From: an uncultured Actinomycetota bacterium
Lineage (GTDB): Bacteria > Actinomycetota > Actinomycetes > JAHEKZ01
Length of the DNA: 64,000 bases
Assembly: GCA_963718235.1 (NCBI GenBank)
Contig: CAVQYR010000002.1
Location: forward strand, 448,001-512,000
Reading direction: 5' to 3'
Part shown: one piece after another, positions 38,986 to 57,431 of the stretch
Numbering within the stretch: the first letter of the stretch is position 1
How the letters are laid out: the number at the start of each line of letters is the position of its first letter
The notes under the pieces: model-generated
What the model was told of the DNA's origin: nothing
The model's input: the letters and a program-made list of their open reading frames with translations, nothing else
Databases searched by the model: none
Made by a program: the position numbers and the translations under genes

Positions 38986-39151
38986 GGTCTTGCTCCTCCT
39001 TGTGCCTCACCCGACCGGCGGTGATGCCGAGTTGTCCGAAACCAGACCCGGTCGCCTGGACCATGCGATGAGCAGCCGACCTTGCTTCCGGTCGCCCAAT
39101 GAGTCGATTATCGAGGGTGGAGCGTCCGTCGGATCGAAGCGCCCATCGGGT

Positions 39152-39163
39152 TCACCCGGGTGA
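39152..39163. promoter_or_regulatory. Palindromic operator candidate TCACCCGGGTGA (site 1)
   Basis: Perfect palindrome (extends to 14 bp) in a divergent intergenic region; minus-strand GATAAT at 39112-39107. Confidence 0.75.
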
Positions 39164-39286
39164 ATGCACACGGATGGGCGAGTTGAATCAACTTCGGCGT
39201 CATGCCGCCCTGCGCCCGTCGGTAGGATCCCTCAGCACTGAGCACGACGTCCGCTCGGCTCGCTGGGATTCCTCATCGAAGGGTTC

Positions 39287-39679
39287 GTGATGTTCAACGA
39301 CAACGGCTCGTTCCTGCTGGCGCTGTTCGAGTTCTTTCTGTTCTTCGCTTGGTTCATGTGTCTGTTCTGGGTCTTCGCGGACATCTTCCGCAGCAAGGAT
39401 CTCGGGGGTGGAGGCAAGACGCTCTGGGTGCTGTTCGTCATCGTGGTCCCCTTGTTGGGCGTGCTCATCTACCTCATCGCCCGTGGGGGCGGCATGCAGG
39501 AGCGACAGCTGGAGCAGACCAAGGAGGCGCAGCAAGCACAGGCCGCCTACATCCAGTCCGTGGCGGGAGCCTCAGGCAGTGCCACCGACCAGATCGCCTC
39601 AGCGAAGGGCTTGCTTGACAGCGGGACCATCACCCAGGCCGAGTTCGACCAGATCAAGGCGAAGGCACTCGCCGGTTGA
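39287..39679 (+). CDS. PLDc_N + SHOCT domain membrane protein
   Basis: DIFRSKDLGGGGKTLW..PLLGVLIYLIARG; C-terminal AKGLLDSGTITQAEFDQIKAKAL. Confidence 0.88.
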   Translation: MMFNDNGSFLLALFEFFLFFAWFMCLFWVFADIFRSKDLGGGGKTLWVLFVIVVPLLGVLIYLIARGGGMQERQLEQTKEAQQAQAAYIQSVAGASGSATDQIASAKGLLDSGTITQAEFDQIKAKALAG

Positions 39680-39777
39680 TCGCTGACTTGCACCTGGGCG
39701 GTGCGTGGGGCACGACCCTGCGGACTCCTCCCTGGTGAGGCTGCAGGCGACGGCACTGGGATCCGGCGAGACGGCGG

Positions 39778-41530
39778 TCAAGAGGTCCCGTCGCGCTCCT
39801 CAGGGGGCTGGGCCGGGTCGATACCCGAGGCCGACTCCTCCTGGATCCCACGCACCGCCAGGTCGACGGTCGGGTAGACGTGCTCTCGGGTGAACGTGGC
39901 GAACAGCCCGTACCGGTGCAGGAGGTCCTCGATCGGTGTACGCATCTCGACGAACACCACGTTGACGCCTCGTGCGTTCAAGTCGTTGTCCAGGTGCTCC
40001 AGCATGTCGGCCGCCGTGACGTCGACGTCGGTGACCGCCGAGAACTCGAGGATGACCCATCGCGGTTCCCGGCTTCGGACGAGCTTTCGGATCTCCTGCC
40101 GGAAGGTGCCCGCGTTCGCGAAGAACAGCGGCGCCTCCCACCGATAGACGACGACTCCGTCGGCTTCCTCAGCCTCCGGGTACTGCTGCGTGCTGTGCCA
40201 GCCATCCAGATCGCGGACCCGGCCCAGAACCTCGCCCTCCGGCCACCAGTTGCGCCGGAAGAACAGCAGGATCGACAGCACCACTGCGATCAGGATTCCC
40301 TCCAGGACGCCGAACAGAATGACGCCGAGGGAGGTGACCAGCGAGACGATGAGCGCGGACCGACGCATGCGGTAGTAGGTGTGAAGGATGCTGATGTTGA
40401 TCAGCGTCAAGGCCGCCGTGATCACAACGGCAGCCAGCGCTGGCTGGGGGAGGTTCTGGAGAAGTGAGGGCAGGAAGAGCAGAAGCACTGCCACGATGCC
40501 CGCACCGGCGAGTCCAGTGACTTGCGACTTCGAGCCCGATTGCTCGGCGACCGCCGTGCGCGAACCGCTCGCCGAGATTGCGAATCCCTGGAACAGACCC
40601 GCGGCGGCGTTGGCCGCGCCCATGCCGATCATCTCCTGGTTGGGGTGGACGGCGTCACCTCGGCGGGCGGCGAAGCTGGTCGATGTGGCGATCGTGTCGG
40701 TCAGGGACACGAGCACGATCCCGAGCGACGCCGCCAACAGTGGACCGATCGTCTCGAGCGACACGGACGGAAAGGCTGCGCTCGGGAGTCCTTGCGGCAG
40801 AGCGCCGACGACGTCGACTCCCTGCTCGGACAGGTCGAGGACTCCTGTCACCACGGTGGCGCCAACTACGGCAACGAGCACCGCGGGGATCTTCGTGGTG
40901 ACACGAGGGAGGATCAGCATGACAGCCAGCGTGGCCAGGCCGATCGCGAGGGCCGTCGTGTTCGTCTGGTCCAGCCCTTCAACGAACAGCTTCACCTCCT
41001 CGACGAACCCGTCAGCGTCGGTCGAGAAGCCAAAGAGCTTGGGCAGCTGGCCGACGATGATCGTGATCGCGAGGCCGTTCATGTAGCCGACCTGCACCTC
41101 CTTGGAGAGCAGGTCCGCAACGAATCCGAGCTTGCCGAGGCCGAGGCCGACCTCGATCGCGCCGACCATCAGTGCCATCATGCCGGCGAGGGCGACGGCC
41201 TCGGCGGGATCGTCGGTGACGAGCAGCGGAACGATGGCGGCGAAGATCAGCGGGGCCACGGACGAGTCGGGACCCAGCACCAGGATGCGCGAAGGGCCGA
41301 AGATCGCGTAGCCCGACGAGGCAGGCGATCGTCGTGTACAGACCGTTGACGGCTGGGACGCCGGCGAGCTCAGCGTAGGCCATACCCTGCGGTACGAGGA
41401 TGGCAGCCAGGACCACTCCGGCGATGAAGTCGTTGCGCAGCCAGGAGCGGCGATAGGACCGGAGCATGCCCACGCCGGGCGCCCATCGCTGGAGGGCTCC
41501 TTGCTTCGTGCTCACCGTCGTTGCGTCCAT
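39778..41530 (-). CDS. SulP family anion transporter with STAS domain (one apparent +1 frameshift ~41313)
   Basis: LVPQGMAYAELAG..NGLY in one frame continues as GPDSS, NQEMIG, SGSRTA, PLFFAN in another. Confidence 0.87.
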
Positions 41531-41531
41531 A

Positions 41532-42810
41532 TCAGCTTGACGATAGCGTGCTGGTCCGCTGGAGGTGGCGCCGTACACGTGGCTCGGGCATCTCGACCAA
41601 TTCCGGCAGGTCGTCGGATCCAGAACGGATCTTTGCGCCGTAGCTCGCGGAGAGCGGCCGGGCGGTGAGTCCGTGCAGGAGCACCGACAGGAGGATCGTC
41701 CACGTGGCGACCTCGAACAGCGGTGTCTCGATGGTCGTCCCCTTGAGCTCCTCGAGGGCAATCAAGGAGAAGACGACGGAGGCGAGCCCGCGCGGACCGA
41801 ACCATCCCATGAAGCCGATCGTCAGCGTTCGGAAGCCCGTGCCCAGCAGCGCGACGCCGACGGGAACCATGCGGATCAGGGTCAGGCTGAGTACGGCATA
41901 GACGACCGCGGAGGCATCGAGGTCACCAGCGAGCACCGGCCCCGCGAAGTAAGCGCCGAAGATGACCCAGACCAGGAGCGAGGCGAACAGCGCGACGTCC
42001 TCCGTGAAGGAGATCGCGCCCCGGTTGCCCTCATCGACCGCGCCGAAGGCCAGCCCGGCGACAAACGCGCTCACGAACCCGTTGCCACCAAGCTGGACGG
42101 ACCCGATGTAGGCGACAAAGGCCAGAGCGAGGACGAACAGCTGCCTCGACGTGTGCGACGACCACGCTCGCTTCGTCGCCACCACGAGCACTCTGCCCCC
42201 GAGCGCACCGACCACGACCGCAACGGCTACTGCGATCGCGATCTGCATCGAGCGCATCGACCACAGGCGAGCCGCCTTCCGTCGTGACCTCGCCGACGAC
42301 CGCGGCGAGGAAGACCGTGACGAACGGTGTGGCGATGCCGTCGTTGAGGCCGCTCTCGATGTTGAGTGCCCTTCGGATCCGGACGGGGACCGCCTTGTCC
42401 GTCACGACCGCCATGCCGAGCGCTGCATCCGTCGGGGCCAGCACGGCTGCGATGAGGGCAGCTTCCGCCCACGTCACGCCGGGTACCACCAACATCGCCA
42501 CGAGGGCACCCAGGCCGAGGGTGAGCAGCAGCCCGACGCTCAGCAGCCGCACCGGCAGGCTGGCGTCACCTTTGAGGTCACGGATCGGCACCGTTGTCGC
42601 GTCGGCGAACAGCAGCGCCGCGAGCGTCAGTTCCGTGAAGGTGAGGACGACGTGGCTTCCGCCTTGCACGTGGAGCAGGTCGGCTCCTTCGGGCCCGAGG
42701 GCCAGACCAGCTGCCACGAACACCATCGGGGCGCTGATCCACAGTCGGTCGAGTCGCCGCGAGAAGGCGCCGTAGCCCACGGCCACGACCAACAGGATCA
42801 GCCCGCCCAC
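41532..42810 (-). CDS. NhaP/CPA1 cation:proton antiporter (one apparent +1 frameshift ~42250)
   Basis: LAPTDAALG, NIESGLNDG, then GGNGFVSAF, WFGPRGLAS, LHGLTA. Confidence 0.87.
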
Positions 42811-43068
42811 GATTCTCCTCCGGGGAAGCGACTCCAGCGCCGCGCACTTGCGCAGATGCATCTTCGCAGCATGAGAGCCGAGCGCAAGGGACCAAAGGAC
42901 CGGGAACGTCAGCCGATCGTCCCCGATCGTCCGGGGCGTCGATGGAGCCGTGCGTCTGAGCGGGGCGCCGACTCGGTTGCCCCGATGTGACCGAGGCTGC
43001 GACAATCCCACCGGTATGAGGACCGCAGACAGAGCACCCCGTCCGCCGACGACGGGCCGGGTGCCGAG

Positions 43069-45303
43069 GTGACGCTCGTCGACGCGAAGCTCGCGGCGCC
43101 GAGTCTTCAGCGTGACGTGGTCGAGCGGCCAAGGGTCACCCGGGCGCTCGAGCAAGGCGCGCATGCACGGGTGACGCTTCTCGAGGCCCCAGCGGGATAC
43201 GGGAAGTCGACGGCGATCCGTTCGTGGTGCGCGAATCAGGATGCCGGAGTGATGTGGGTGACGCTCGACTCCGGTGACGACGACCCCGTACGAATGTGGT
43301 CCTACATCGCGACCGCCGTCGAGCGGATCCGGCCAGGCGTGGCGCACTCGGTGCTGCAGAGCCTCGAGATCCAGGGAATGGACATCGAGCATGCTGTGGA
43401 CGAGCTTTTGACGCTTTTCGGCCGGTCACGGAGTCCGGCGATCCTGGTCCTCGACGATCTTCATACCGTGACCAGCCACGAGTCACTCGCATCGATCGAC
43501 CGTGCGCTGAGCCATCTGCCCGACAACCTCCGCGTGATCATCGGCACCCGTGTGGATCCACCACTTGCGATCCCGCGGATGCGAGCTGCGCAACAGCTGA
43601 CGGAACTGCGCGCCAGTGATCTGGCATTCGCCGTACCAGAGGCGCACTCTTTGCTTGTCGACCATTTCGGGCTCAACCTGTCGTCGGACCAGACCGCGGC
43701 GCTGGTCGAACGGACGCAGGGCTGGCCCGCCATGCTCGTTCTCACCGGAATCTGGCTGCGCGGTGTCAACGACCCGGAGAGCGCCGTGGCGAGATTCAGC
43801 GGTGCCCAGCAGTTTGTCGCGGACTACCTGAGCACGGAAGTGCTGGCGGCACTCGACGATGAGCGTCGCACGCTACTGCAGCAACTGGCTGTGCTGGGTC
43901 AGTTCACGCCCGCCCTGTGCGACGCCGTGTTGGAGCGCACGGACTCGGAGAAGATGATCGAGGACCTCCGACACTCCGGACTCTTCGTGTCACGGCTCGA
44001 CCAAGGAAGCTGGTACCGCATCCACCCGCTCTTCGCGGAGTACGCAAAGCTCGAGCTTGAAGCGACGGAGCCGGGGGCGGCGACAGTGATTCATCACAAC
44101 GCCTCACGCTGGCTGGCAGAGCGGTGGCCGGTCGACGCAATGGGGCACGCATCGGCAGCGGATGAGCCGGCGTATGTGGCAGAGCTGCTGGCGGAGCACC
44201 ATCTCAGCCTCATCCGAAGCGGGTCCGGTCGCACGCTCCTTCGCTGGGCGGGCACACTGCCCGACGATGTGCTGATCGCGCACCCTGAGGTCGCGGTGGC
44301 GTCAGCGATCGCGACTCTTCTCCTGAGCGCCAGCACGATGGATCGAAACCGCTACTTGGGCCTGGTGGACAGGGCGATCGACAAGGATCTCGCACCGGGA
44401 GACGGTTACGTGGCGTCCGCCGCACTGATCGCGCGCACGCTCGCGCTCGAGGGGGGCGTTACCGACGCGGTGGAGACCGGAAGACGGGCCGTCGGGTTGA
44501 CCCAGGGCATCTTCGACGACCTCTCCGATGGTGCGCTTGCAGCGACTGGTCGCGCGCTCTACTTCGCGGGAGCGGTCGACGAGGCTCGTGACATGGCGCT
44601 GCGGGCCTTGCAGAATCCCGACGCCGCGCGGCGTGCGCCGACGCTGATTCACGCGCACGCCACACTCGCGCTGGTCGCCGTGGAGCAGCGCAGACTCTCG
44701 TCAGCCCGGGGTCACGCCGACACGGCGAAGGACCTGGTTGGTCGGATCGGCACCAGTCGCAGCTGGCTGGGTGCGAACGTCGTTGCGGCCCGAGGCGCGC
44801 TGCTGCTCGCAGAAGGACAGCACGCCGAGGCCTGCCGGCAGCTCGCCACGGCCGAGCACTTCCTGCGCGACGACGTTGCGACCGTGCACCACACCTGGCT
44901 CCTCCTGCTGCTGGCCAGGGCATATGCCGGCCGCGGGCGTCTGGACGAGGCGTCGCAGACGGCGCGGGTCGCCCGTGACGCTCTCGCCGAGCTCCCGGAT
45001 ACCGGCATCCTGCCGGCGCTTGCGGACGCCACGGACCTGGACATCGTGCGAGCGGGCAAGCGTGCCCGCGACGGGGATATGCTCTCCGCGCCCAGCGACG
45101 CGGAAATGGCGGTTCTTCGGCTGATTGCCGAGGACCTCTCGCTCCGGGAGATCGGTGCGCGCTTGTATGTGTCGGAGAATACGGTTCGAACTCACCGGCG
45201 CGCCTTGTACCGCAAGCTCGGCGCACACTCGCGCGAGGAGGTGATCGCGAGGGCGATCGCACTTCAGCTTCTGGGCGAACAGGGGTCGCCGGCCGAGCTC
45301 TGA
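43069..45303 (+). CDS. MalT-like STAND ATPase / LuxR-HTH transcriptional regulator
   Basis: Walker A APAGYGKST, Walker B LVLDDLH, TQGWPA, YRIHPLF, TPR-like middle, C-terminal IGARLYVSENTVRTHRRALYRKLG. Confidence 0.92.
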   Translation: MTLVDAKLAAPSLQRDVVERPRVTRALEQGAHARVTLLEAPAGYGKSTAIRSWCANQDAGVMWVTLDSGDDDPVRMWSYIATAVERIRPGVAHSVLQSLEIQGMDIEHAVDELLTLFGRSRSPAILVLDDLHTVTSHESLASIDRALSHLPDNLRVIIGTRVDPPLAIPRMRAAQQLTELRASDLAFAVPEAHSLLVDHFGLNLSSDQTAALVERTQGWPAMLVLTGIWLRGVNDPESAVARFSGAQQFVADYLSTEVLAALDDERRTLLQQLAVLGQFTPALCDAVLERTDSEKMIEDLRHSGLFVSRLDQGSWYRIHPLFAEYAKLELEATEPGAATVIHHNASRWLAERWPVDAMGHASAADEPAYVAELLAEHHLSLIRSGSGRTLLRWAGTLPDDVLIAHPEVAVASAIATLLLSASTMDRNRYLGLVDRAIDKDLAPGDGYVASAALIARTLALEGGVTDAVETGRRAVGLTQGIFDDLSDGALAATGRALYFAGAVDEARDMALRALQNPDAARRAPTLIHAHATLALVAVEQRRLSSARGHADTAKDLVGRIGTSRSWLGANVVAARGALLLAEGQHAEACRQLATAEHFLRDDVATVHHTWLLLLLARAYAGRGRLDEASQTARVARDALAELPDTGILPALADATDLDIVRAGKRARDGDMLSAPSDAEMAVLRLIAEDLSLREIGARLYVSENTVRTHRRALYRKLGAHSREEVIARAIALQLLGEQGSPAEL

Positions 45304-45454
45304 CAGCGCTCGACCAGGTCGAGAGACCGGCTGCGACTGCACCGAGGGCTCGTGCGCACTGGTCGGAGCGACGACAGCCCTCGGGATAGGCTTTGGGCGA
45401 AGTGCAGTGCGCCCACCCAGAGGAGGGCGCGTCCGACCCCCGAGGAGATTCCAG

Positions 45455-45817
45455 ATGCTTGAGTGGCTCGAGAGGTTCTTCGACAAGCACTTCCTCGGTT
45501 CTGGAACGACGTCGATCAGTCCAGAGGACGAGGTCGCTGAAGCGATCAGGGACGGTGCCATGATCCTCGACGTCCGCCTCGGTTTGGAAGCGAAGCGAGG
45601 GATGGTGCCGGGAGCGAAGAACATCGACCTGCTGGTCCTCGGTCGCCACCTGGACGAGTTGCCGCGGGACCGGACAATCGTGACCTACTGCAAGTCGGGC
45701 GGGCGTGCCGGCAAGGCCCGGGACATCCTTGCTGACAAGGGCTTCACGGTGGTCAACGGTGGGACCTACGACAGGGTCCTGAAGATCGCCCAGAAGAACC
45801 AGCCTTCGGCGGGGTAG
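45455..45817 (+). CDS. Single-domain rhodanese
   Basis: ILDVR, VPGAKNI, active loop YCKSGGRA; GAGGAG SD. Confidence 0.85.
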   Translation: MLEWLERFFDKHFLGSGTTSISPEDEVAEAIRDGAMILDVRLGLEAKRGMVPGAKNIDLLVLGRHLDELPRDRTIVTYCKSGGRAGKARDILADKGFTVVNGGTYDRVLKIAQKNQPSAG

Positions 45818-45865
45818 GCGCGAAGGTGCGTCCGCGCAACGGCGCTTGAGCCTTTGCGCCCCGAG

Positions 45866-45877
45866 TCACCCGGGTGA
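45866..45877. promoter_or_regulatory. Palindromic operator candidate TCACCCGGGTGA (site 2)
   Basis: Perfect palindrome; CATCGT at 45916-45921; ATG at 45928. Confidence 0.75.
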
Positions 45878-45927
45878 TTCGCTGCTGGAGCCGAGTCCCG
45901 CACCGGTGAAGATGTCATCGTCAAGTC

Positions 45928-46461
45928 ATGGGCTCATCAAGGCAACCCGCGGAGACGCCGCAGCGAGTGCCAGGCCCAGGCGCCAAGCGTGGGCTGGGCC
46001 GCGCGAACGCCTGGCGGATCATCTCGACCGCCGTAGCCTCGTCGCCCGTGCTCGTCCGGGCCTTGATCCGGCCCACGGTGTCGCGGGCGCTGCGTGAGAA
46101 GTTGATGCTCGAGGTCAGCGCCGTCAATGACTGCCGGTACTGCCAGTGGGGTCACACGTATCTTGCGGTCTCGCAGGGCGTTCCCCTGGAGGAGATCAAC
46201 CAGATCTTCGGCTACCAGAACGAGGCTCTCCGTGCTCGCGACGCGGCCGAGGCGGCGGCGATTCTGTTCGCCCAGCACTACGCGGAGCGCCTCGAGGAGT
46301 ACGACCCGGCCGCGATGGTCGACTTGCGCCAGTACTACTCCCAGGCGCAATGCACCGAGATCCTTGCCTACTTGCGCGCGATCACGCTCGGGAACCTGAC
46401 CGGGAACAGCTTGGATGTGATCGTGGGTCACTGGTCCCCACGGCGCCGGGCACGCCGATAG
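45928..46461 (+). CDS. AhpD/carboxymuconolactone decarboxylase family protein (CxxC)
   Basis: REKLMLEVSAVNDCRYCQWGH, FAQHYAE, GNLTGN. Confidence 0.82.
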   Translation: MGSSRQPAETPQRVPGPGAKRGLGRANAWRIISTAVASSPVLVRALIRPTVSRALREKLMLEVSAVNDCRYCQWGHTYLAVSQGVPLEEINQIFGYQNEALRARDAAEAAAILFAQHYAERLEEYDPAAMVDLRQYYSQAQCTEILAYLRAITLGNLTGNSLDVIVGHWSPRRRARR

Positions 46462-46515
46462 TCTGGCTCGGCGATGGCTGCCCCACTTTGGGGCCGTCGG
46501 GGAGGGGAGGCCAAG

Positions 46516-47274
46516 GTGCCACCAGAGGACACCGAGCGATCGACAGCCGTCGTCCCGCGCCACGACCCGGCGACGCTGCGATGGGGTCCGATGACCGTGA
46601 ACGGGCGCCACTATCCCTTGCTGGGCCAACGGAAGTTCGGTGCCGGCTTGCGGTTGTTCCAGCGGCGACGTGATCTCTGGGCGATCTACCGCCGCCAGCG
46701 GCTTGCGCCCCAGCTGCGGGAAGAGATCATGCTCTCCGCGGCGGGTGCCGACTCAAGCCGCCAGTGCAGCTACGCCCACCGCCAGTGGGCCGAGTCCGTG
46801 GGGGTCACTGAGGGGGAGCTCGCCGCGCTGGAGAACCTCGACTTCACCGCCTTCGACCGGCGTCGATGGGCGGCCTTCGCGTGGGCCCAGGCGTATGCGC
46901 GCAACGACCTTGGCCCGGTTCCTGATGATGTGGAAGCCGTCTTCCGCCACTACTACGACGCCCAGGAGCGGGCAGACATCGAGCTTGCCGCGCGTACGAT
47001 GTACTGGCTCAACGAGACCAGCAACAGCGTCGACGCCCTGCTCTCGCGTTTGCGCCGTGAGCCCCTCCCCGGAAGCACGCTGACCACCGAGATTGTCGCG
47101 TGGCTGCTGTATGCGCTCGTGGCGCCCGTCCTGTTCACCTGGTTGAGCATCCGGCAGGGGTATCGACCCATTCGGATGTTCCGAGGCATGCGTCCCTTCT
47201 TTCGAGAGTTCGAGACGCGTGGGCCCCACACAATCTCAGGGCCAGGCGTGCGGTACAGCGGTCCGATCTCGTAG
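46516..47274 (+). CDS. AhpD/CMD family protein (SxxC variant) with C-terminal TM helix
   Basis: REEIMLSAAGADSSRQCSYAH; SD GGAGGGGAGG before GTG 46516 (alternative ATG 46474). Confidence 0.75.
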   Translation: MPPEDTERSTAVVPRHDPATLRWGPMTVNGRHYPLLGQRKFGAGLRLFQRRRDLWAIYRRQRLAPQLREEIMLSAAGADSSRQCSYAHRQWAESVGVTEGELAALENLDFTAFDRRRWAAFAWAQAYARNDLGPVPDDVEAVFRHYYDAQERADIELAARTMYWLNETSNSVDALLSRLRREPLPGSTLTTEIVAWLLYALVAPVLFTWLSIRQGYRPIRMFRGMRPFFREFETRGPHTISGPGVRYSGPIS

Positions 47275-47279
47275 GAGGT

Positions 47280-47291
47280 TCACCCGGGTGA
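47280..47291. promoter_or_regulatory. Palindromic operator candidate TCACCCGGGTGA (site 3)
   Basis: Perfect palindrome; AATGCT at 47330-47335; ATG at 47342. Confidence 0.75.
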
Positions 47292-47341
47292 GGTGGGTGC
47301 GCAACCTGGCCCATCCGACCGCACGGGGCAATGCTTGCAGC

Positions 47342-47596
47342 ATGGGTGTGAAGACCTATCGCCTGACCGTCGAAGGTGAGCTCAGCGACAGTATGGCGCC
47401 AGCCTTCCCCGGAATGACCCTCACGCGTCGCGACGGAGTCACCACCCTCACCGGCGAGATCGTCGATCAGGCAGGGCTACAAGCAGTGATGCGCCGGCTG
47501 TCCGACCTGGGGCTCACCCTCCTGGAGTCGAAGGCGGTCGGAGGCACCCCGACGCAGCCACCCGCGGCGTCGTCCCCCACCAGCGCAAGCGGGTAG
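47342..47596 (+). CDS. Small conserved hypothetical protein (ACT/ferredoxin-like pattern)
   Basis: MGVKTYRLTVEGELS..AFPGM..TTLTGEIVDQAGLQAVMRRLSDLGLTLL; real start placed at ATG 47342 inside track ORF 47219..47596. Confidence 0.8.
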   Translation: MGVKTYRLTVEGELSDSMAPAFPGMTLTRRDGVTTLTGEIVDQAGLQAVMRRLSDLGLTLLESKAVGGTPTQPPAASSPTSASG

Positions 47597-47600
47597 TCAC

Positions 47601-48071
47601 ATGGTCTGGGCGATCCTTCTGCTGCTCGGCATTCCACTGTGGTTCATCGTGGTGGGAATCACGGTCACGGTGCTTCGGAACCGGAATCTGCGGCGTCGGC
47701 AAGGCAACTTCCCGGCTCGGGTTAGGCGACCCGGCAAGACGCGTTGGACTCGCGGAAACGCACTCTGGGTCTCGGACGTGTTCGCGTTCCGCGGCAGCCC
47801 GGCCGCTTGGAGTGAGGACATCGTCCACGTGGTCGGTCTTGCCTCTCGTGAGCCGTCCGACGAGGAGACTCACCGGCTCCGCCGACTGGGGGACCGCCTG
47901 CAGATTGCCACGCTCTCCGTCGCTGACGGCGATCCCTACGAGGTGGCGACTCAGGCCGAGCACAAAGCGGCACTGCACGGACCCTTCAGCGCACAACTGA
48001 CACCGGTCAACGCCGGGCCAACCGCCCCGGGGCTGGCCATCGACACGATCGAAGAGGAGACAAGCACATGA
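47601..48071 (+). CDS. Membrane-anchored hypothetical protein (DUF2550-like)
   Basis: MVWAILLLLGIPLW N-terminal TM followed by a basic beta-rich domain. Confidence 0.65.
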   Translation: MVWAILLLLGIPLWFIVVGITVTVLRNRNLRRRQGNFPARVRRPGKTRWTRGNALWVSDVFAFRGSPAAWSEDIVHVVGLASREPSDEETHRLRRLGDRLQIATLSVADGDPYEVATQAEHKAALHGPFSAQLTPVNAGPTAPGLAIDTIEEETST

Positions 48072-48751
48072 AGCTCAAGACTGGTCTGGACGGCACCTCT
48101 CGGATTCACAAGACGGACACGCGCGGCAACCTGTTCTGCGGGTTGGGCGCCTTCGTCGGCATCGGGCCGTTGCAGCGCGCACATGTCTACTCGGCGCCCG
48201 GTATCCCCGTGGACCCTGACGCCCACACGAAGATCGATCCGGTGAAGTTGGCCGTCGAGCTCGAGGTGGACATGTGCGCCGTGAACAGCGGGCGGCACTG
48301 GATGATGGACGAGTTCACCTTGTCTGCCGGCGAGATCCAGGACTTCCACGGTGTCGAGATGGTCTGGGCCGGCGACATGACCGGCGCGGAGATGATCTCC
48401 CAGTTCTCCTCCGCGTACAGCCCCTCCCTGATCTACCGCAACACCGACTGGGTCTGGCACGCGGGCAAGCCCGTGTACCTGCTGCGCGAGCCGAACGGGA
48501 CCGTGTGGGTCCTGCAGGAGTACGGCAACGAGGTCGACGAGACGTTGACGGCCGACAACCTCGAACGGCTGGGTGGCATGTACCAGAACCTGCCCGAGGG
48601 CTGGACCTTCGAGACCAAGATCCTGGACGAGGAGCTCTCGCTCGACACCTCCCGGGCAGGCGGCTGGGCTGCGATCGTGCGTGACGAGTTCGGCTGCACC
48701 TTCCAGGCCTGTGGCTACGGTGCGGACACCAGCGCGAACTTCATCCCCTGA
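48068..48751 (+). CDS. Conserved hypothetical protein
   Basis: GAGGAG SD, ATGA overlap, strong codon bias; NSGRHWMMD, GKPVYLLREPNG..VLQ, LPEGWTF. Confidence 0.8.
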   Translation: MKLKTGLDGTSRIHKTDTRGNLFCGLGAFVGIGPLQRAHVYSAPGIPVDPDAHTKIDPVKLAVELEVDMCAVNSGRHWMMDEFTLSAGEIQDFHGVEMVWAGDMTGAEMISQFSSAYSPSLIYRNTDWVWHAGKPVYLLREPNGTVWVLQEYGNEVDETLTADNLERLGGMYQNLPEGWTFETKILDEELSLDTSRAGGWAAIVRDEFGCTFQACGYGADTSANFIP

Positions 48752-48771
48752 CTCAAGTCCCCAAGGAGGAC

Positions 48772-49338
48772 ATGATGGCCACTCCGACCCATAACGGGCG
48801 CCCGATCGTCGAGCAACGTCAGACCAAGCTGGGGCTCTACGTCACGGCCAAGGAAGCCTACGACATGTGGCAGGAGGACCCTCAAGGCGTCAAGCTCCTC
48901 GACGTTCGCACGCCGGAGGAGTGGGTCTTCACCGGCCACGCGCCAATGGCCGCGTTGATCCCGTTCGCATTTATGGCCTACGTCTGGGACGAGGAGAAGC
49001 AGGGATTCACCTGGTCCCTGAACCCCGACTTCCTCGCTTCGGTCAAAGAGCGGTATAGGCCCGAGGACACGATTCTCGTCACGTGCAGGTCTGGTGGACG
49101 AGGGGCGATGGCGATCAACATGATGACGGCAGCCGGGTACACCAGGGCCTACAACATCCTGGATGGGATGGAGGGCAGCAGGGTCGACGACCTCGACAGC
49201 GTGTTCAACGGTATGCGCCGCAAGAACGGATGGGTCATGTCAGGTCTGCCCTGGACCTACGACCTCGACCCCGAGGTGATGGCGATCCCCGAGCGCGAGG
49301 AAGTGGGAGAGCTTCACCCGGGGAACGCTGAGGACTGA
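48772..49338 (+). CDS. Rhodanese-like protein
   Basis: LLDVRTPEEW..GH, TCRSGGR, YNILDGMEG, GW..SGLPW. Confidence 0.87.
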   Translation: MMATPTHNGRPIVEQRQTKLGLYVTAKEAYDMWQEDPQGVKLLDVRTPEEWVFTGHAPMAALIPFAFMAYVWDEEKQGFTWSLNPDFLASVKERYRPEDTILVTCRSGGRGAMAINMMTAAGYTRAYNILDGMEGSRVDDLDSVFNGMRRKNGWVMSGLPWTYDLDPEVMAIPEREEVGELHPGNAED

Positions 49339-49429
49339 AGGGCAAGCAGGCATAGGAGGTTCCCCGTCCGATCACTCCGGCGAGGGGACACCTCCGTCGG
49401 CCTCGAGGAGATGTGTCACCACGGACCCG

Positions 49430-50101
49430 ATGAGTTCTGCCACTCGCGCGAGCCTACGGACCCCACGGTCAGCAGGCGTCGCAGGCATCATCTTCTCGGT
49501 GTTGCTCGGCGCCGTGTTCTTGCTGATTCGACTCTCGGTTCCGTCGAGTGAGTCCGCGAGCGGCAGTTGGACGGCAGATCCCGACAGGCGGGAAGCGGTG
49601 TCCCTCGCGCTCAACCTGGTGCCGTTCGCCGGCATCGCCTTCCTCTGGTTCATCGGCGTCATCCGAGACCGGATCGGCGAGTTCGAGGACCGCTTCTTCG
49701 CCACGGTCTTCCTGGGCAGCGGCCTGCTGTTCATCGCCATGGTGTTCGCCGGTGCTGCCGTCGTCGGCGGACTCCTGGGCGACCCGTCGATCAGCGAGGG
49801 CGGTGTGCCGGACCCTGTGCTTTGGGACCATGAGCGACGGGTCACGGTCACTTTGATCAACAGCTATGCGGTCAGGATGGCGGCCATCTTCATCGTCTCG
49901 ACGACGACGATCGGGATGCGTACCGGGATCCTTCCCCGCTGGCTCATCGTAGCCGGGTTCATCGCCGGAGCAGTGCTCCTCGTCGGAGCCAACTTCAGCC
50001 CTTGGTTGAACCTCTTCCTGCCAATCTGGGCTTTGGTGCTGAGCATCGACATCTTGGTCAGAAGCGGCAAGATCGAGCGCACCCTGCCGCTGGAGCGCTG
50101 A
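49430..50101 (+). CDS. Multi-pass membrane protein of unknown function
   Basis: LRTPRSAGVAGI, PFAGIAFLWFIGVIRDRIG..EDRFFATVFLGSGLLF; about 6 TM helices. Confidence 0.82.
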   Translation: MSSATRASLRTPRSAGVAGIIFSVLLGAVFLLIRLSVPSSESASGSWTADPDRREAVSLALNLVPFAGIAFLWFIGVIRDRIGEFEDRFFATVFLGSGLLFIAMVFAGAAVVGGLLGDPSISEGGVPDPVLWDHERRVTVTLINSYAVRMAAIFIVSTTTIGMRTGILPRWLIVAGFIAGAVLLVGANFSPWLNLFLPIWALVLSIDILVRSGKIERTLPLER

Positions 50102-50207
50102 GTCATCGACCACGCGGAGCTCCGATCAGCATGTGGTTCTCCACGGTGTTCGCCGGTGAAGGGGAATTCGGTCGAGTGGTCACGAGAAGATCGGTGAGGG
50201 GAGTTCG

Positions 50208-51626
50208 GTGATGAGTGCACAGGACGCGAATGCGAGGGTCGTCCACCGCTCGCGGGCGGAGCGGGGGGCCGTGGGGAAGGCGGCGCGCAAGCGGGCGCCG
50301 TTGACGGATCACAGCCGGCTCGAGCTGGCTGGGTCACGGGACCCCGTGGGGCTGCTCCTTGGCCAGGCGCGGTCGCGGGTACCGGAGCTGGTGCCGCTGC
50401 GGCACGGCCGGATGTTGGTCTCGCCCTTCACCTTCTACCGAGGGGCGGCGCTGCCGATGGCAGCGGACCTGGCGGCCACTCCTTCGTCTGGGCTACGGGT
50501 GCAGCTGTGCGGTGACGCTCATCTGGCCAACTTCGGGGCATTCGCCTCGCCGGAGCGGCGGCTGGTCTTCGACGTGAACGACTTCGACGAGACCCTGCCC
50601 GGTCCGTTCGAGTGGGACGTCAAACGGCTGGTTGCCAGCCTTGCGGTGGCTGGACGGGCGAACGGTTTCACGGCGAAGGAACGGCGTGCGATCACCCTCG
50701 CCGGGGCGACCGGCTACCGCCAGGCGATTCGCGAGTTCGCCGAGCAGTCAGTGATGGCGGTGTGGTACGCCCACACCGACGTCGAGCAGGAGATCCGGCG
50801 CTTCCGCGCCGAGATCCCGAAAGCCCGGTTCAAGGCAGCCCAGAAGATGCTGGCCAAGGCGCACACCCGCGACAGCATGCAGGCCCTGAGCAAACTGACC
50901 GAGGAGAAGGACGGTCAACGTCGTTTTGTCGTCAACCCACCGCTCATCGTCCCTGTCGAGGACTTGTTCACCGAGTTCGACGCGGACACCATCTACCAGT
51001 TGGTGCACCAGGTGCTCCACGGCTACCAGAGAACACTGCAGTCAGACCGCCGCCACCTTCTCGAGCAGTTCGACCTGAAGCAGGTCGCCCGCAAGGTGGT
51101 CGGGGTCGGCAGCGTGGGTACGCGTGCCTATGCGCTGCTGCTGGAGACTGGCGACGGTATCGAACCGCTCTTCCTCCAGGCCAAGGAGGCGCAGGCCTCG
51201 GTGCTGGCTGACTACTGCGGGCGCAGCCAGTACCGGAACCAGGGCCAGCGGGTCGTGGCGGGGCAGCACCTGATGCAGGCTGCCAGCGACATCTTCCTCG
51301 GTTGGCGCCGGATCGCCGGCGATGACGGGGTGGCCCGGGACTTCTACATCCGCCAACTGCGCGACTGGAAGTTCTCCTTCCCGGTCGAGAAGATGATCCC
51401 CAAGGGAATGGCGATCTATGCCGGTCTCTGCGCCTGGACCCTGGCCCGTGCCCACGCCCGCTCCGGTGACCGGGTGGCGATCGCCGCCTATCTCGGCAAG
51501 TCGACCAAGTTCGACGAGGCGGTCGCCGACTTCGGAGAGCTGTACGCCGACCAGAACGAACGCGACTACGCGGCACTCGCCGACTCGGTCGCCTCCGGTC
51601 GCGCAGAGGCCACAACCGGACTCTGA
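50208..51626 (+). CDS. DUF2252 family kinase-like protein
   Basis: SPFTFYRGAA, GDAHLANFG, FDVNDFDE, KVVGVGSVG, LARAHARSGD. Confidence 0.92.
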   Translation: MMSAQDANARVVHRSRAERGAVGKAARKRAPLTDHSRLELAGSRDPVGLLLGQARSRVPELVPLRHGRMLVSPFTFYRGAALPMAADLAATPSSGLRVQLCGDAHLANFGAFASPERRLVFDVNDFDETLPGPFEWDVKRLVASLAVAGRANGFTAKERRAITLAGATGYRQAIREFAEQSVMAVWYAHTDVEQEIRRFRAEIPKARFKAAQKMLAKAHTRDSMQALSKLTEEKDGQRRFVVNPPLIVPVEDLFTEFDADTIYQLVHQVLHGYQRTLQSDRRHLLEQFDLKQVARKVVGVGSVGTRAYALLLETGDGIEPLFLQAKEAQASVLADYCGRSQYRNQGQRVVAGQHLMQAASDIFLGWRRIAGDDGVARDFYIRQLRDWKFSFPVEKMIPKGMAIYAGLCAWTLARAHARSGDRVAIAAYLGKSTKFDEAVADFGELYADQNERDYAALADSVASGRAEATTGL

Positions 51627-51645
51627 CGGACCCACCGAGTCAGAA

Positions 51646-51687
51646 TCAGGTCCTCCCAGACGTCGGGGGACGTCTGGGAGGACCTGA
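51646..51687. terminator. Bidirectional terminator-like hairpin
   Basis: TCAGGTCCTCCCAGACGTC-GGGG-GACGTCTGGGAGGACCTGA (19-bp stem) between convergent genes. Confidence 0.85.
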
Positions 51688-51695
51688 CCGACGAG

Positions 51696-51833
51696 CTAGC
51701 GGTCGCGACGGTCCTCGCGTCGGTCGCCACGGTCGTCGCGTCGGTCAGCCCTGCGGTTGTGGCCATGAGCAACGACGGCTGCTCCGCCGACCGCTGCGAT
51801 CCTCCTGCGCCTGCGTCGGTTTGCCATCGGCAT
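51696..51833 (-). CDS. 45-aa Arg/Asp-rich small protein
   Basis: AAGGAG SD; MPMANRRRRRRIAAVGGAAVVAHGHNRRADRRDDRGDRREDRRDR*; a paralogous fragment at 23794 with synonymous changes supports coding. Confidence 0.72.
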   Translation of the reverse strand: MPMANRRRRRRIAAVGGAAVVAHGHNRRADRRDDRGDRREDRRDR

Positions 51834-51834
51834 G

Positions 51835-52281
51835 TCAGGCTCCTTCCTCGGCGTCGGCCTCGATTGCCGCCAACACCGCCTGTGTCGGGATCCGTCCGGT
51901 GGCCACGAGCTGGCCGCCGGCCTTACGAACTGCGCTGCCGAACGGTGCGGCCCAGAGGTTCTCCCACACCACGACGGCGGCGGTGCTGCCCGGCTCAATG
52001 GTCTCAGCCAGGTCCAGCACGTCCTGTTCGCTGAGCACCATCGCTAGCTCAGCCTCTGTCATCCGGAGCTCTCCGAGTTCGCTGGGGTCCAGTTCGGAGA
52101 GCTCAACAACGTTCAACGTGCCGTCGGTGTCCTTCTGCAGCACCATCAGGTCGAGCACGCGCACCAGCCCACGGTCGACCAGGTCGACGAGGTGTGGTGC
52201 GATCTCTCCAGTTGGTTGTTTGCCGGGGAACTCGAGCACGAACCAGTCAACCGGTCCGAGTTCGTCGACGTTCATAGCCAT
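51835..52281 (-). CDS. DUF6325 family protein
   Basis: LGPVDWFVLEFPG, LVDRGLVRVLDL, VWENLWAAPF, GGQLVATGRIP. Confidence 0.85.
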   Translation of the reverse strand: MAMNVDELGPVDWFVLEFPGKQPTGEIAPHLVDLVDRGLVRVLDLMVLQKDTDGTLNVVELSELDPSELGELRMTEAELAMVLSEQDVLDLAETIEPGSTAAVVVWENLWAAPFGSAVRKAGGQLVATGRIPTQAVLAAIEADAEEGA

Positions 52282-52374
52282 TCGATCCTCCGATCTGGCG
52301 TACGGTCACCCGTCGCCATTGAGTGGTACCTGTACTGCGGGCCTCAGCGCCCGCACTCTTCCCCTGCCGCACCG

Positions 52375-53253
52375 TCAGAACAGCGTGGGAACGCTGCGGG
52401 GACCGAAGGCGGGCGCTACGTACCCGCGGGGGCGCGGCACGCGTGGCATCGTGATGTCTTCGTGATGGAGCGGCTCGTAAGGGACTTGACTCAGGAGGTG
52501 AGAGATGATGTTGAGCCGACCGCGCTTCTTCACTTCGTTGTTGACGACCCACCAAGGCGCCCAAGCCGTGTCGGTCGCGGCGAACATCGCGTCGCGAGCC
52601 CGGCAGTAGTCGTAGTGGCGACGATAGGACTTCAGGTCCGTCGGCGACAGCTTCCAGACCTTGCGCGGATCCTCGATCCGAGCTTCGAGCCTTCGAGCCT
52701 GCTCATGGACGCTCACGTTGAGCCAGTACTTGATCAGGATGATCCCGTTCTCGACCATCGCCCGTTCAAACGTAGGCGCCCCTTCGAGGAACTTCTGAGT
52801 CTCCTCCGGGGTGCAGTAGCCCATGACCGGTTCGACCCCAGCGCGGTTGTACCAACTGCGGTCGAAGATCGCGACTTCACCGGCCGACGGGAAGTGCGCC
52901 ATGTAGCGCTGGATGTACATCTGTGACTTCTCGCGCTCCGTCGGAGTGGGCAGTGCGATGTGCTTGAAGACCCGGGGGCTCGTGCGTTCGGTGATGCGCC
53001 TGATCGTGCCACCCTTGCCTGCTGAGTCCAGACCCTCGAAGACCACGCAGATTCGGGCGCCCGAGGCCTTGACCCACTCCTGCATGGCTACCAGCTCGCC
53101 CTGCAGGACCCGCATCTCCTTCTCGTACTCGCGGCGCTTCATCTTCTTGCGGCCCGACCCGGCATCCGTCCTAGTCGAAGCGGACGCCGGCAGGACCTCG
53201 TGCGAGCCCGGCGACTCGTGACCGCTCTTGTGCTTCTTGGCCTTCCGTCCCAT
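52375..53253 (-). CDS. ppk2: Polyphosphate kinase 2
   Basis: FEGLDSAGKGG, FDRSWYNRAGVE, WKLSPTD, APWW. Confidence 0.93.
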   Translation of the reverse strand: MGRKAKKHKSGHESPGSHEVLPASASTRTDAGSGRKKMKRREYEKEMRVLQGELVAMQEWVKASGARICVVFEGLDSAGKGGTIRRITERTSPRVFKHIALPTPTEREKSQMYIQRYMAHFPSAGEVAIFDRSWYNRAGVEPVMGYCTPEETQKFLEGAPTFERAMVENGIILIKYWLNVSVHEQARRLEARIEDPRKVWKLSPTDLKSYRRHYDYCRARDAMFAATDTAWAPWWVVNNEVKKRGRLNIISHLLSQVPYEPLHHEDITMPRVPRPRGYVAPAFGPRSVPTLF

Positions 53254-53314
53254 GAGCCACTCCCTGTCCCCGGATCGCCTACTGATCAGCCCGGCTGTCC
53301 GGTTCCCCTCAGGG

Positions 53315-53719
53315 TCAGTTGGGACCCGCGGTGATGTCACGTCCGTGGACGGTGAGGGCCCACATCACGAACACCGAGGTGGTGATGAGGATGACCCCCC
53401 ACACCGGGGCGAAGGGCAGCCAGGCAAAGCCGATGAGCATGCTGATGACAGCCAGGATCACGCCGACCGTGCGCGCCCACACTGCGCCTTGGAACAGGGC
53501 GAGCCCGGCGAAGAACACCACGATGCCGAGCAGGAGATGGATCCAACCCCAGGTGGTGACGCTGAACTGGAACACGTAGTTCTCCGTGGCGACGAACACG
53601 TCGTCCTTGAGGATCCCGGCGAAACCGATGATGGCCCACCACACGCCGAGAACGGTCATCATGACCCCGGCGAACATGGTCCATCCCACGGCCGCACTAC
53701 TGGGCTGTTGCTGGGACAT
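53315..53719 (-). CDS. DUF7144-like 4-TM membrane protein
   Basis: GWTMFAGVMM, TTWGWIHLLLG, WARTVG; AAGGAGGAG SD. Confidence 0.82.
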   Translation of the reverse strand: MSQQQPSSAAVGWTMFAGVMMTVLGVWWAIIGFAGILKDDVFVATENYVFQFSVTTWGWIHLLLGIVVFFAGLALFQGAVWARTVGVILAVISMLIGFAWLPFAPVWGVILITTSVFVMWALTVHGRDITAGPN

Positions 53720-53834
53720 TGCTCCTCCTTCGTGACGCAGGCATGGCTTGTCGCCACACCCATGCAGGCGACTCCGCTCGCCATCACCGACGCTAGCTGC
53801 ACCAGGTGGTCTCTCGGGGAGGGCTGACCCGGAA

Positions 53835-53846
53835 CCACCCGGGTGA
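53835..53846. promoter_or_regulatory. Palindromic operator candidate (site 4, 11/12 match)
   Basis: CCACCCGGGTGA; minus-strand TAGCGT at 53795-53790. Confidence 0.7.
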
Positions 53847-57287: not shown

Positions 57288-57346
57288 GGAGTCGAGGGTA
57301 CGGGCCACTCGGGACCGCCGGAGGGCTCGATGCGTGCAGGGGGAGC

Positions 57347-57360
57347 CCCAGGAATCTGGG
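57347..57360. promoter_or_regulatory. Operator candidate CCCAG-N4-CTGGG
   Basis: Inverted repeat between the divergent LuxR gene and the 57432 gene. Confidence 0.5.
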
Positions 57361-57431
57361 ATGTCGTGCACAACGGGCCACCACCTACCGTGGGTGCGTT
57401 CGTGGGACGTACGCGGCGAAGGGAGCGCTCA

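Follow-up and report, generated by a model that had tools for sequence, protein, structure and literature searches.

The window, i.e., the whole analysed stretch of 64,000 nucleotides, contains a gene island of an uncultured soil actinomycete for which comparison with related genomes indicates that a MalT-like STAND-LuxR regulator (LAL) switches neighbouring stress-type genes on. We consider it probable that this LAL binds the palindrome TCACCCGGGTGA, a pair of inverted MalT-box-like half-sites with its centre near -56.5, and that it activates promoters that lack a -35 element. The cis-architecture, its conservation, the cross-genome link between regulator and motif and the domain homology to MalT were shown. 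The coordinates of the features are listed in Table 1. G000 is the genome of the window, other G labels denote related genomes and L labels denote loci; G017 includes L001 and L002.

Table 1. Palindromic sites, -10-like hexamers, regulator gene and predicted target genes in the window.
Feature	Position	Strand	Remarks
Site 1, perfect palindrome	39152..39163		Between cupin and SHOCT genes; conserved in G001
Site 2, perfect palindrome	45866..45877		Sequence match
Site 3, perfect palindrome	47280..47291		5 nt past the second AhpD-like gene's stop codon
Site 4, 11/12 palindrome (CCACCCGGGTGA; TCACCCGGGTGG on the minus strand)	53835..53846		Sequence match
-10-like hexamer GATAAT	39107..39112	-	39 nt past site 1; predicted TSS near 39100
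-10-like hexamer CATCGT	45916..45921	+	38 nt past site 2
-10-like hexamer AATGCT	47330..47335	+	38 nt past site 3
-10-like hexamer TAGCGT	53790..53795	-	39 nt past site 4; predicted TSS near 53783
MalT-like LAL regulator, 744 aa	43069..45303	+	STAND P-loop NTPase N-terminal, putative helical/TPR-like middle, LuxR/GerE HTH C-terminal
Small rhodanese	45455..45817	+	Pfam Rhodanese; directly 3' of regulator gene; GAGGAG precedes ATG 45455
Cupin-like gene, 130 aa	38593..38985	-	Pfam Cupin_2, weak, E 3.4e-4; leader ~115 nt
PLDc_N/SHOCT membrane protein	39287..39679	+	Pfam; possible target, via a more distant promoter
AhpD/CMD-family pair, 177 aa and 266 aa	45928..47274	+	Pfam CMD, TIGR00778; first gene predicted leaderless
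Operon: 84-aa (predicted leaderless), 156-aa membrane, 227-aa and 188-aa rhodanese proteins	47342..49338	+	Gene gaps 4, -4 and 20 nt
DUF7144-PPK2-DUF6325 operon	51835..53719	-	Pfam E 1e-38, 1.5e-86 and 1.5e-13, respectively

The palindrome is formed by inverted GGGTGA half-sites (TCACCC/GGGTGA) with zero spacer. The three perfect copies and the 11/12 copy claimed in a preliminary description of the window were all found again, and all four are intergenic (bounds of the flanking ORFs: 38985/39287, 45817/45928, 47274/47342 and 53719/53910). In 100 dinucleotide-preserving shuffles of the window, the mean motif count was 0.30 and none reached four copies (0/100). The genome (3.17 Mb) contains four perfect copies, namely three within the island and one inside a gene (C1:1698647), as well as 47 copies with one mismatch. 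A genome-wide scan for the motif and its positional bias, proposed earlier as a check, revealed that only the four sites of the island combine at most one mismatch, a location outside genes and the hexamer spacing. Position 495280 was scored as genic by the automated ORF call because this call extends upstream of the true ATG. Among the two-mismatch copies in the genome, no enrichment of the spacing was found (6/64 outside genes versus 48/472 inside). The palindrome observation holds and is stronger than a sequence-only reading could show.

At all four sites, a -10-like hexamer starts 50–51 nt from the first base of the motif, and the codons ATG 45928 and ATG 47342 each stand 62 nt away from the start of the motif and 6 nt past the hexamer; both distances agree with those reported previously. 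The spacing was evaluated using 21 sites, namely four in the window, eight in G017 (L001, L002), five in L006 and four in L007. A NANNNT hexamer was found 38–40 nt past the motif in at least one orientation at 21/21 sites. Counted over 42 site-orientations, NANNNT occurred 17 times at offset 38, six times at 39 and once at 40, versus about once at each of the other offsets. The fixed spacing, whose absence elsewhere had been named as a possible argument against the regulon, is kept in the window and three related lineages. The ATG of the AhpD-like gene is 62–63 nt from the motif start in four lineages (window, G017, L006 and L007), and that of the gene encoding a protein of 84–88 aa is 62 nt away in three (window, G017 and L006). 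Site position and spacing are kept upstream of orthologous genes even where the LALs are 62–74% identical and the flanking DNA cannot be aligned. The arrangements CATCGT-6 nt-ATG 45928 and AATGCT-6 nt-ATG 47342, which are kept in G017, L006 and L007, have the form of leaderless actinobacterial promoters, in which a (T)ANNNT hexamer ends 6–7 nt ahead of the start codon and a Shine-Dalgarno sequence is absent, and the two transcripts beginning at these codons are predicted to be leaderless, with predicted TSSs. A search for RNA data gave a single run, made up of contigs that mostly belong to relatives. No conserved or recognisable -35 element was found at these motif-bearing promoters. The comparison supports the motif as a promoter element that is conserved and has its centre near -56.

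The regulator was assigned earlier to MalT-like STAND-LuxR proteins, and Pfam, NCBIfam and PDB matches bear this out. Residues 677–727 match Pfam GerE with 50.1 bits (cut-off 23.5), corresponding to a C-terminal LuxR/GerE HTH. The N-terminal STAND NTPase was recognised via a Pfam AAA_22 match and the similarity of residues 3–415 to PDB MalT 8bob (E 1.2e-46). Walker A and B motifs are present, and four orthologues (alignment A1) share the Walker A stretch GYGKST and the LVLDDLH stretch without any change. The NCBIfam MalT model (NF003420) aligned with residues 3–631 (E 4.5e-88, 296.3 bits). Pfam TPR_MalT gave no match to the LAL of the window at E ≤ 1e-3, and the NCBIfam model aligns through residue 631; in the orthologues, its scores (L001 40.2, L006 36.8 and L007 25.2 bits) were all below the 45-bit cut-off. 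The domain order (STAND NTPase, putative sensor, LuxR HTH) is that of E. coli MalT, but the LAL has 744 aa versus 903 positions in the MalT model. Identity with MalT proper, the activator of the maltose regulon, was rejected: the NCBIfam score is below the equivalog cut-off of 537, and no maltose or maltodextrin (mal) genes were found within the island in the annotation of its proteins. The motif was not found upstream of the LAL gene in the window, so autoregulation is not evident there.

The link between the regulator and the motif was then considered across genomes. All four contigs encoding LAL orthologues with 62–94% identity hold perfect motifs (1–5 each), and the four aligned orthologues (A1) share one recognition helix, VSENTVRTHRR. 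The perfect 12-mer also accompanies distant full-length LAL homologues (32–35% identity). It was found at 11 of the 80 metagenome loci, with 12 sites in 0.54 Mb and with all but L064 among the full-length 33–36% matches, and at 6 of the 27 genome loci. Five loci with top homologues (L094, L096, L098, L099 and L109) contained neither this motif nor TCATCC-N5-GGATGA within 1.5-kb flanks. An unbiased scan of 401 Actinomycetes genomes for the motif and its spacing yielded 118 site-orientations, of which 38, in nine genomes, were within ~21 kb of an LAL homologue. Clusters of at least three sites occurred beside LAL homologues only (G000, G001, G017, G080, G179 and G253).

In addition, one position of the recognition helix covaries with the motif. 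The helix fits NT-x-[KR]-[TS]-H in 28/28 LAL rows with TCACCCGGGTGA at the locus, and Gln occupies the His position in 6/7 rows with TCATCC-N5-GGATGA at the locus (a single label covers all rows from the same locus, and related sequences do not count as independent). The exception is L030, which has the second motif but His. The state combining Gln and the second motif appears in two separate places in the LAL tree. His is also common among LAL homologues without a motif at the locus, so only Gln is diagnostic. Taken together, co-localisation in many lineages and the His/Gln covariation support the regulator-motif link.

These data also bear on whether the palindrome could be a real promoter operator bound by some other protein, the LAL being a passenger or a target. 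Candidate binders would be the 402-aa LuxR protein (56163–57371) and the AsnC regulator (34275–34733), both in the window, or a factor encoded elsewhere; the islands of distant relatives hold further LuxR-type proteins (second and third LALs and an HD-LuxR protein) and an ECF sigma factor. However, no DNA-binding protein except the LAL recurs in the islands of G000, G017, L006, L007, G179 and G080, the HTH search of L001, L006 and L007 gave the LAL alone, and the covariation sits in the LAL helix itself. Across the 401 genomes, the motif occurs patchily and goes with the island, which does not fit a conserved global factor. We regard binding by another protein as improbable.

The comparison supports the cupin gene, the AhpD pair, the 47342–49338 operon and the DUF7144-ppk2-DUF6325 operon as predicted targets. 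The cupin orthologue in G017 has its own site with a hexamer at offset 39, and the cupin leader is partly conserved. In the 47342–49338 operon, only the rhodanese has a Pfam match; the same four genes follow a site at 62 nt in G017 and L006. PPK2 scored 332 bits with TIGR03707, above the cut-off of that model, and the DUF7144 genes in G017 have sites. Activation of these targets by the LAL from about -56 had been proposed; the element and the targets are upheld by comparison, and activation itself is presumed. For the SHOCT gene, mentioned earlier as a possible further target, no hexamer was found at offset 38–40 on its side of site 1 in the window (only TAGGAT at offset 59). Control by the motif is nevertheless plausible, if weaker than for the other targets, because SHOCT genes in G017 and G080 have their own sites. 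The small rhodanese gene lacks its own site in the window and may be co-transcribed with the regulator gene; its orthologue in G017 has one. We infer a redox/sulfur/polyphosphate stress role for the island.

The regulon had been presented as a candidate undescribed one, which is not borne out, since Droste et al. (2020, PMC7567727) described a homologous arrangement of LAL, palindrome and island in Actinoplanes sp. SE50/110. According to that report, the LAL MalT (ACSP50_3915) belongs to a large genomic region regulated by maltose (MRLGR), and transcription of the 51-gene island falls when malT is deleted and rises when it is overexpressed. The sequence TCATCC-5nt-GGATGA, found at 17 mapped TSSs of this island at a distance of 34.4 nt, was proposed as the MalT operator and tied by the authors to the E. 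coli MalT box GGA(T/G)GA (PMC7567727). As in the window, the gene for a MalT-like LAL lies within an island of mostly poorly annotated genes, and many island TSSs (predicted ones in the window) have a palindrome of MalT-box-like hexamers upstream at a constant distance. An LAL gene in an island with one shared palindrome of this kind was found in the window, G017, L006 and L007 (4, 8, 5 and 4 sites, respectively). Like the islands studied here, those of the Actinoplanes type are rearranged among relatives, and the authors take them to be horizontally acquired (PMC7567727); ppk2 genes are found in islands of the relatives, and a class II glutamine amidotransferase, likewise encoded in the G017 island, is present too. 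TCATCC-N5-GGATGA was found beside homologues of the window's LAL in G059, G088, G235, G360, G348 and G187, and its -10 peak at 22–23 nt agrees with the 34.4 nt to the TSS in Actinoplanes.

No exact copy of TCATCC-N5-GGATGA was found in G000. The half-sites are TCATCC/GGATGA with a 5-nt spacer in Actinoplanes versus TCACCC/GGGTGA with none in the window, and the centre is at about -42.5, overlapping the -35 region, versus about -56.5 without a -35-proximal box. Assignment of the window motif to the Actinoplanes type (-35-overlapping, 3' end ~34 nt from the TSS) was rejected, as it has no spacer and ends 50 nt before the predicted TSS. The window's LAL has His where the LALs beside the Actinoplanes-type motif have Gln, is only ~30% identical to them and, unlike in the MRLGR, has leaderless genes among its predicted targets. 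The operator variant and its position (zero spacer, upstream placement, leaderless targets) are new here.

GGGTGA and the GGATGA variant of the MalT-box core GGA(T/G)GA differ at one base (PMC7567727, PMC9628970). In the distant relatives G179, G080, G253 and G156, the predicted TSS has a proximal GGGTGA ~35 nt away, the position at which these reports place the MalT box (PMC7567727, PMC9628970). In the window, the operator consists of one zero-spacer palindrome, located well upstream of -35, whereas E. coli MalT uses asymmetric -35 boxes and upstream repeats. Strictly spaced and centred at -56.5, the site is unlike both the Actinoplanes motif at -42.5 and the -35-overlapping MalT box; the activation mechanism is not simply transferable.

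The Streptomyces LAL SCO6993 is, like the window's LAL, a large ATP-binding LuxR-family protein; its binding sites are short palindromes within promoter regions, and it acts as a repressor of actII-ORF4 and redD (PMC9628970). By this precedent, the LAL could bind the palindrome but mainly repress, or act in both ways, the promoters being driven by RNA polymerase alone or another activator; a site upstream of -50 could serve looping or anti-activation. We find this unlikely. The -10 spacing is fixed within 2 nt at 21/21 sites and the -35 is not conserved, and both features are hallmarks of promoters that depend on an activator. One would expect the site of a repressor to overlap with the -35/-10/TSS region, and the nearest characterised homologue, Actinoplanes MalT, is an activator (PMC7567727). 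SCO6993 represses regulators of antibiotic pathways and has footprints that lack a consensus (PMC9628970), whereas the window regulon has an invariant 12-mer at fixed spacing. It is very improbable that the repeats are non-regulatory (chance copies, remnants of small mobile repeats or CCCGGG restriction-modification targets): the 12-mer does contain the SmaI/XmaI core CCCGGG and has 0–10 copies per genome in 291 of the 401 Actinomycetes genomes, for the most part single and scattered, but no repeat flanks were found around the sites, the shuffles and the conservation across lineages speak against this reading, and the spacing statistics already contradict it.

In the preferred reading, activation by the LAL, the protein is, by analogy with MalT, probably inactive until ATP and a small-molecule signal permit its oligomerisation. 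Its C-terminal LuxR-type HTH domains would bind the operator at -62 to -51 of the four island promoters, relative to the predicted TSSs, where a -10 of the actinobacterial ANNNT type is present and no -35 is recognisable. From there, the LAL would activate, rather than repress, the four predicted targets. A 12-bp spacer-less palindrome is short for a LuxR-type dimer.

A wider reading can be put forward only tentatively: actinobacterial MalT-like STAND regulators might form one large family with a modular code of MalT-box half-sites, in which one helix residue sets the third base of the half-site (His/GGGTGA, Gln/GGATGA), and the clade of the window might have lost the -35-proximal box and activate -35-less, partly leaderless promoters solely from a rigid zero-spacer palindrome at -56.5. 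We know of no LAL for which such activation geometry has been described; if this reading is true, the oligomeric STAND body, and not the HTH, would bridge to RNA polymerase. Promoters shifted 21 nt further (-77.5) may also be served, namely those of SHOCT in the window and of the regulator gene in L006 and L007.

The palindrome TCACCCGGGTGA, two inverted GGGTGA half-sites with zero spacing, was found as perfect copies at positions 39152, 45866 and 47280 of the window and as an 11/12 copy at position 53835. This agrees with the preliminary description, and the location of all four sites between genes, the -10-like hexamers (NANNNT) and the distances to the ATG codons were also exactly as given there. 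Dinucleotide-preserving shuffles of the window (n = 100) gave 0.30 matches on average and never as many as four. The genes of the surrounding island are listed in the table.

Genes of the island carrying the palindrome sites (window positions)
Gene or operon	Position	Strand
Weak cupin	38593–38985	-
PLDc_N/SHOCT membrane protein	39287–39679	+
SulP-STAS transporter	39778–41280	-
Na+/H+ exchanger, two frames	41532–43392	-
LAL regulator	43069–45303	+
Small rhodanese	45455–45817	+
Two AhpD/CMD-family proteins	45928–47274	+
Operon: three proteins without family match and a rhodanese	47342–49338	+
Membrane protein	49430–50101	+
DUF2252	50208–51626	+
DUF6325, PPK2, DUF7144	51835–53719	-

The MalT-like STAND-LuxR regulator (LAL, 744 aa) matched the MalT N-terminal structure 8bob (E 1.2e-46) and the NCBIfam MalT model (E 4.5e-88), yet stayed under the equivalog cut-off of the latter; its C-terminal end is a GerE-type HTH. 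LAL regulators are abundant in Actinobacteria, and to our knowledge DNA targets have been established for very few of them. Here the operator, its spacing and a whole small regulon can be read from the DNA of an uncultured lineage.

The sites were conserved in close relatives. Genome G001, from the same genus, contained the identical set of three perfect sites. In G017 (same family, another genus), eight perfect sites were found in 20 kb around the orthologous LAL (64% identity), preceding orthologues of DUF7144 (twice), SHOCT, the rhodanese, the AhpD pair, the 88-aa operon and the cupin. Two MAG contigs, L006 and L007, encode LAL orthologues (74% and 62% identity) accompanied by five and four perfect sites, respectively. 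In G017 (contig L001, 16932–16943) and L006 (6915–6926), the LAL reading frame stops at the final TGA of a palindrome site, which is predicted to drive the next downstream promoter, and the LAL proteins end in ...SPG; the LAL of the window has a different C-terminal end and the site stands after the small rhodanese instead. Two sites on one contig of G023 were rejected, as one lies within a response-regulator coding sequence, neither has the hexamer spacing and no island was found.

Promoter geometry was evaluated for the 21 sites of the window, G017, L006 and L007, that is 42 site-orientations, at offsets of 0 to 99 nt from the motif end to the hexamer. NANNNT occurred at offset 38 in 17 site-orientations, at 39 in six and at 40 in one, with about one occurrence per other offset. 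The hexamer was present in at least one orientation at every site and in both orientations at three. It was mostly CAnnCT, often directly preceded by TGC, and no conservation of a -35 element was found across the 21 sites. Measured from the motif start, the ATG of the AhpD-like gene came at 62–63 nt in four lineages and that of the 84–88-aa gene at 62 nt in three; if transcription starts at these ATG codons, the palindrome would occupy positions -62 to -51. Shine-Dalgarno sequences are present in the predicted leaders of the cupin operon (about 115 nt) and the DUF7144 operon (about 64 nt). In addition, hexamers at offset 59–60 (38–39 plus 21) face SHOCT in the window (39152, + side); in L006 (4550, + side) and L007 (9790, + side), the gene they face is that of the LAL. 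These three cases, taken as a lead, hint that the site may also be permitted in another phase, two helical turns more distant, and promoters with the site near -77.5 may form a class of their own.

Four lines of sequence evidence (gene content, distant homologues, a 401-genome scan and covariation) point to the LAL as the probable binder of the palindrome. First, no other DNA-binding protein was shared by every island examined. Second, the perfect 12-mer was present in 11 of 80 metagenome loci found by LAL alignment (apart from L064, these belong to the full-length matches with 33–36% identity) and in six of the 27 loci that surround the best LAL homologues of the class. Third, scanning 401 Actinomycetes genomes for the motif with its spacing gave 118 site-orientations, distributed over 78 genomes. 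For 38 of these, a LAL homologue was located no more than about 21 kb away (G000, the genome of the window, 3; G001, 3; G017, 9; G042, 1; G080, 4; G156, 2; G179, 7; G205, 1; G253, 8). All clusters of at least three such sites were LAL-adjacent. The other 80 site-orientations were singletons or pairs, often in apparently orthologous coding sequences, and roughly correspond to the chance expectation from the approximately 700 bare 12-mer copies in those genomes. LAL-linked islands with this 12-mer are spread over at least six families of Actinomycetes (f1, f17, f24, f25, f44 and f47). Three of the genomes used are unpublished: G042 contributed a single LAL-adjacent site, the locus L108 and a row of the tree, G372 a tree row without a motif (L099) and G060 one singleton of the scan.

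The fourth line is covariation with a second motif, TCATCC-N5-GGATGA. The best-scoring LAL homologues without the 12-mer adjoin this motif (G059, G088, G235, G360, G348 and G187). The recognition helix N-T-x-[K/R]-[T/S]-His was found in all 28 LAL rows with the first motif, and Gln occupied the His position in six of the seven rows with the second motif, L030 being the exception. In a FastTree phylogeny built from 75 LAL proteins (SH-like support only; rows of one locus share one label), the Gln/second-motif state appeared at two separate positions. His was also the common state among LAL homologues without either motif in view.

Within G000 (3.17 Mb, 70% G+C, two contigs), only four perfect copies were found, three in the window and one within a gene on the other contig, and no further copy with at most one mismatch was both intergenic and correctly spaced. 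Copies with two mismatches were spaced in 6 of 64 cases outside genes and 48 of 472 inside, i.e., not more commonly outside. These results indicate that the regulon is confined to the island. Weaker island sites (at most three mismatches, with spacing) were found within genes only, and therefore no further site is proposed. A search of G000 for other spacers (TCA[CT]CC-N0-8-GG[AG]TGA) showed no enrichment apart from the zero-spacer sites. A lone TCATCCGGATGA located 3.3 kb from a paralogous LAL (C1:298823) was rejected, having neither the spacing signal nor a second copy.

In the libraries searched, the 12-mer and its 10-nt core turned up in unrelated primer contexts only, and among LAL footprints SCO6993 was the only useful comparator found. 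According to PMC7567727, the MalT-like LAL of Actinoplanes sp. SE50/110 (ACSP50_3915) activates a 51-gene island, as determined from deletion and overexpression transcriptomes. Seventeen mapped TSSs are preceded there by TCATCC-N5-GGATGA, the 3' end of the motif standing 34.4 ± 1.0 nt before the TSS, and the authors liken this sequence to the MalT box of E. coli, GGA(T/G)GA. They describe related islands in other Micromonosporaceae as rearranged and as carrying ppk2, and consider them horizontally transferred (PMC7567727). The interpretation in the preliminary description was largely right. Systems of this kind have already been described, and what is new here is an operator and position variant of such islands. 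At our second-motif loci, the -10-like hexamer peaked 22–23 nt after the motif (7 of 20 site-orientations), which reproduces the published geometry with a centre near -42.5, whereas the palindrome of the window would be centred at about -56.5. The half-sites, GGGTGA and GGATGA, differ by one base. Together with the Actinoplanes data, this offers a testable specificity rule, namely His or Gln versus the third half-site base.

In distant relatives with the 12-mer of the window (several metagenome contigs as well as G179, G080, G253 and G156), promoters were composite, a further GGGTGA being located 9–10 nt after the palindrome. The palindrome is still 38–40 nt from the -10 hexamer, and the extra GGGTGA stands in the place of the Actinoplanes and E. 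coli proximal box; the clade of the window showed no conservation at this place. With the Actinoplanes data, a natural promoter series is available (proximal box only, proximal box with distal palindrome, distal palindrome only), from which the contact between STAND activators and RNA polymerase could be worked out. Many redox genes were noted in G179, a mycobacterial-type genome with MmpL/MmpS genes (L119 and L120, G179:C4:35001–72000). Its 30-kb island has seven palindrome sites and three LAL genes, and includes MsrA, MsrB, a nitroreductase, SDRs and cupins. An ECF sigma factor, a DUF326 protein and a disulfide oxidoreductase are also encoded, and the promoters carry both the palindrome and GGGGTGAtgacnncTCACCCC.

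In the proposed mechanism, a pair of LAL HTH domains would bind the zero-spacer palindrome and, in response to an inferred signal, the regulator would presumably activate promoters lacking a -35 element from a site at about -56.5. The AhpD pair and the 84-aa operon would give leaderless transcripts, with predicted TSSs at the ATG codons 45928 and 47342; those of the other two transcripts are predicted near 39100 and near 53783. The target set comprises AhpD-like CxxC proteins, rhodaneses, PPK2, DUF2252, SHOCT, DUF7144 and DUF6325, and that of G179 includes Msr enzymes, the nitroreductase and quinone oxidoreductases. Taken by themselves, these family names suggest a redox, sulfur or energy-stress response, and the target set would link several protein families of unknown function with each other in a single regulated response.

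The G+C content of the island is 64–67% compared with 70% for the genome, and the island was present in three of the 20 family genomes searched (the order-level scan comprised the same 20 genomes and added nothing); both observations fit horizontal transfer. Along the window, G+C is 72–77% at 1–20 kb and 64–69% from about 20 kb on, with a tRNA gene at 23495–23568, and the drop near 20 kb may be the edge of acquired DNA.

Several further features of the genes were noted. The 84–88-aa, 156-aa and 227-aa operon proteins matched no Pfam or NCBIfam family and are constant companions of a 188-aa rhodanese; the predicted leaderless 84–88-aa protein (window 47342–47596; L002, also of G017, 843–1109; L006 9766–10029) has the pattern MG.K.YRLTVEGELSD...LLE.K. 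The Pfam profile of the Na+/H+ exchanger is divided between ORF 41532–42257 (profile 175–372) and the overlapping ORF 42031–43392 (profile 4–165), both on the minus strand. The exchanger is a single gene in G017 and L007, with its own palindrome site in L007, and the split in the window is a frameshift or an assembly error. A P-type cation ATPase at 27301–30011 (plus strand), in pieces of 226 aa (N-terminal) and 527 aa (C-terminal) about 450 nt apart, may be a broken gene.

The cupin 5' leader (window 38986–39100, minus strand; L002, about 4960–5060) is kept between G000 and G017 as ...CGACCGGGTCTGG...ATCACCGCCGGTCGGGTGA...AAGGAGGAGCA..ACCATG, with another GGGTGA at the end of this stretch. 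Its CGACCGG can pair with CCGGTCG just upstream of the ribosome-binding site. An Rfam scan of the window returned one tRNA only and assigned no known RNA family to this leader. Among contigs of the single metatranscriptome run found (X1, 5% of sampled words), 66 of 71 pieces were less than 95% identical to the window and therefore stem from relatives; two short pieces were identical to window positions 48665–48812.
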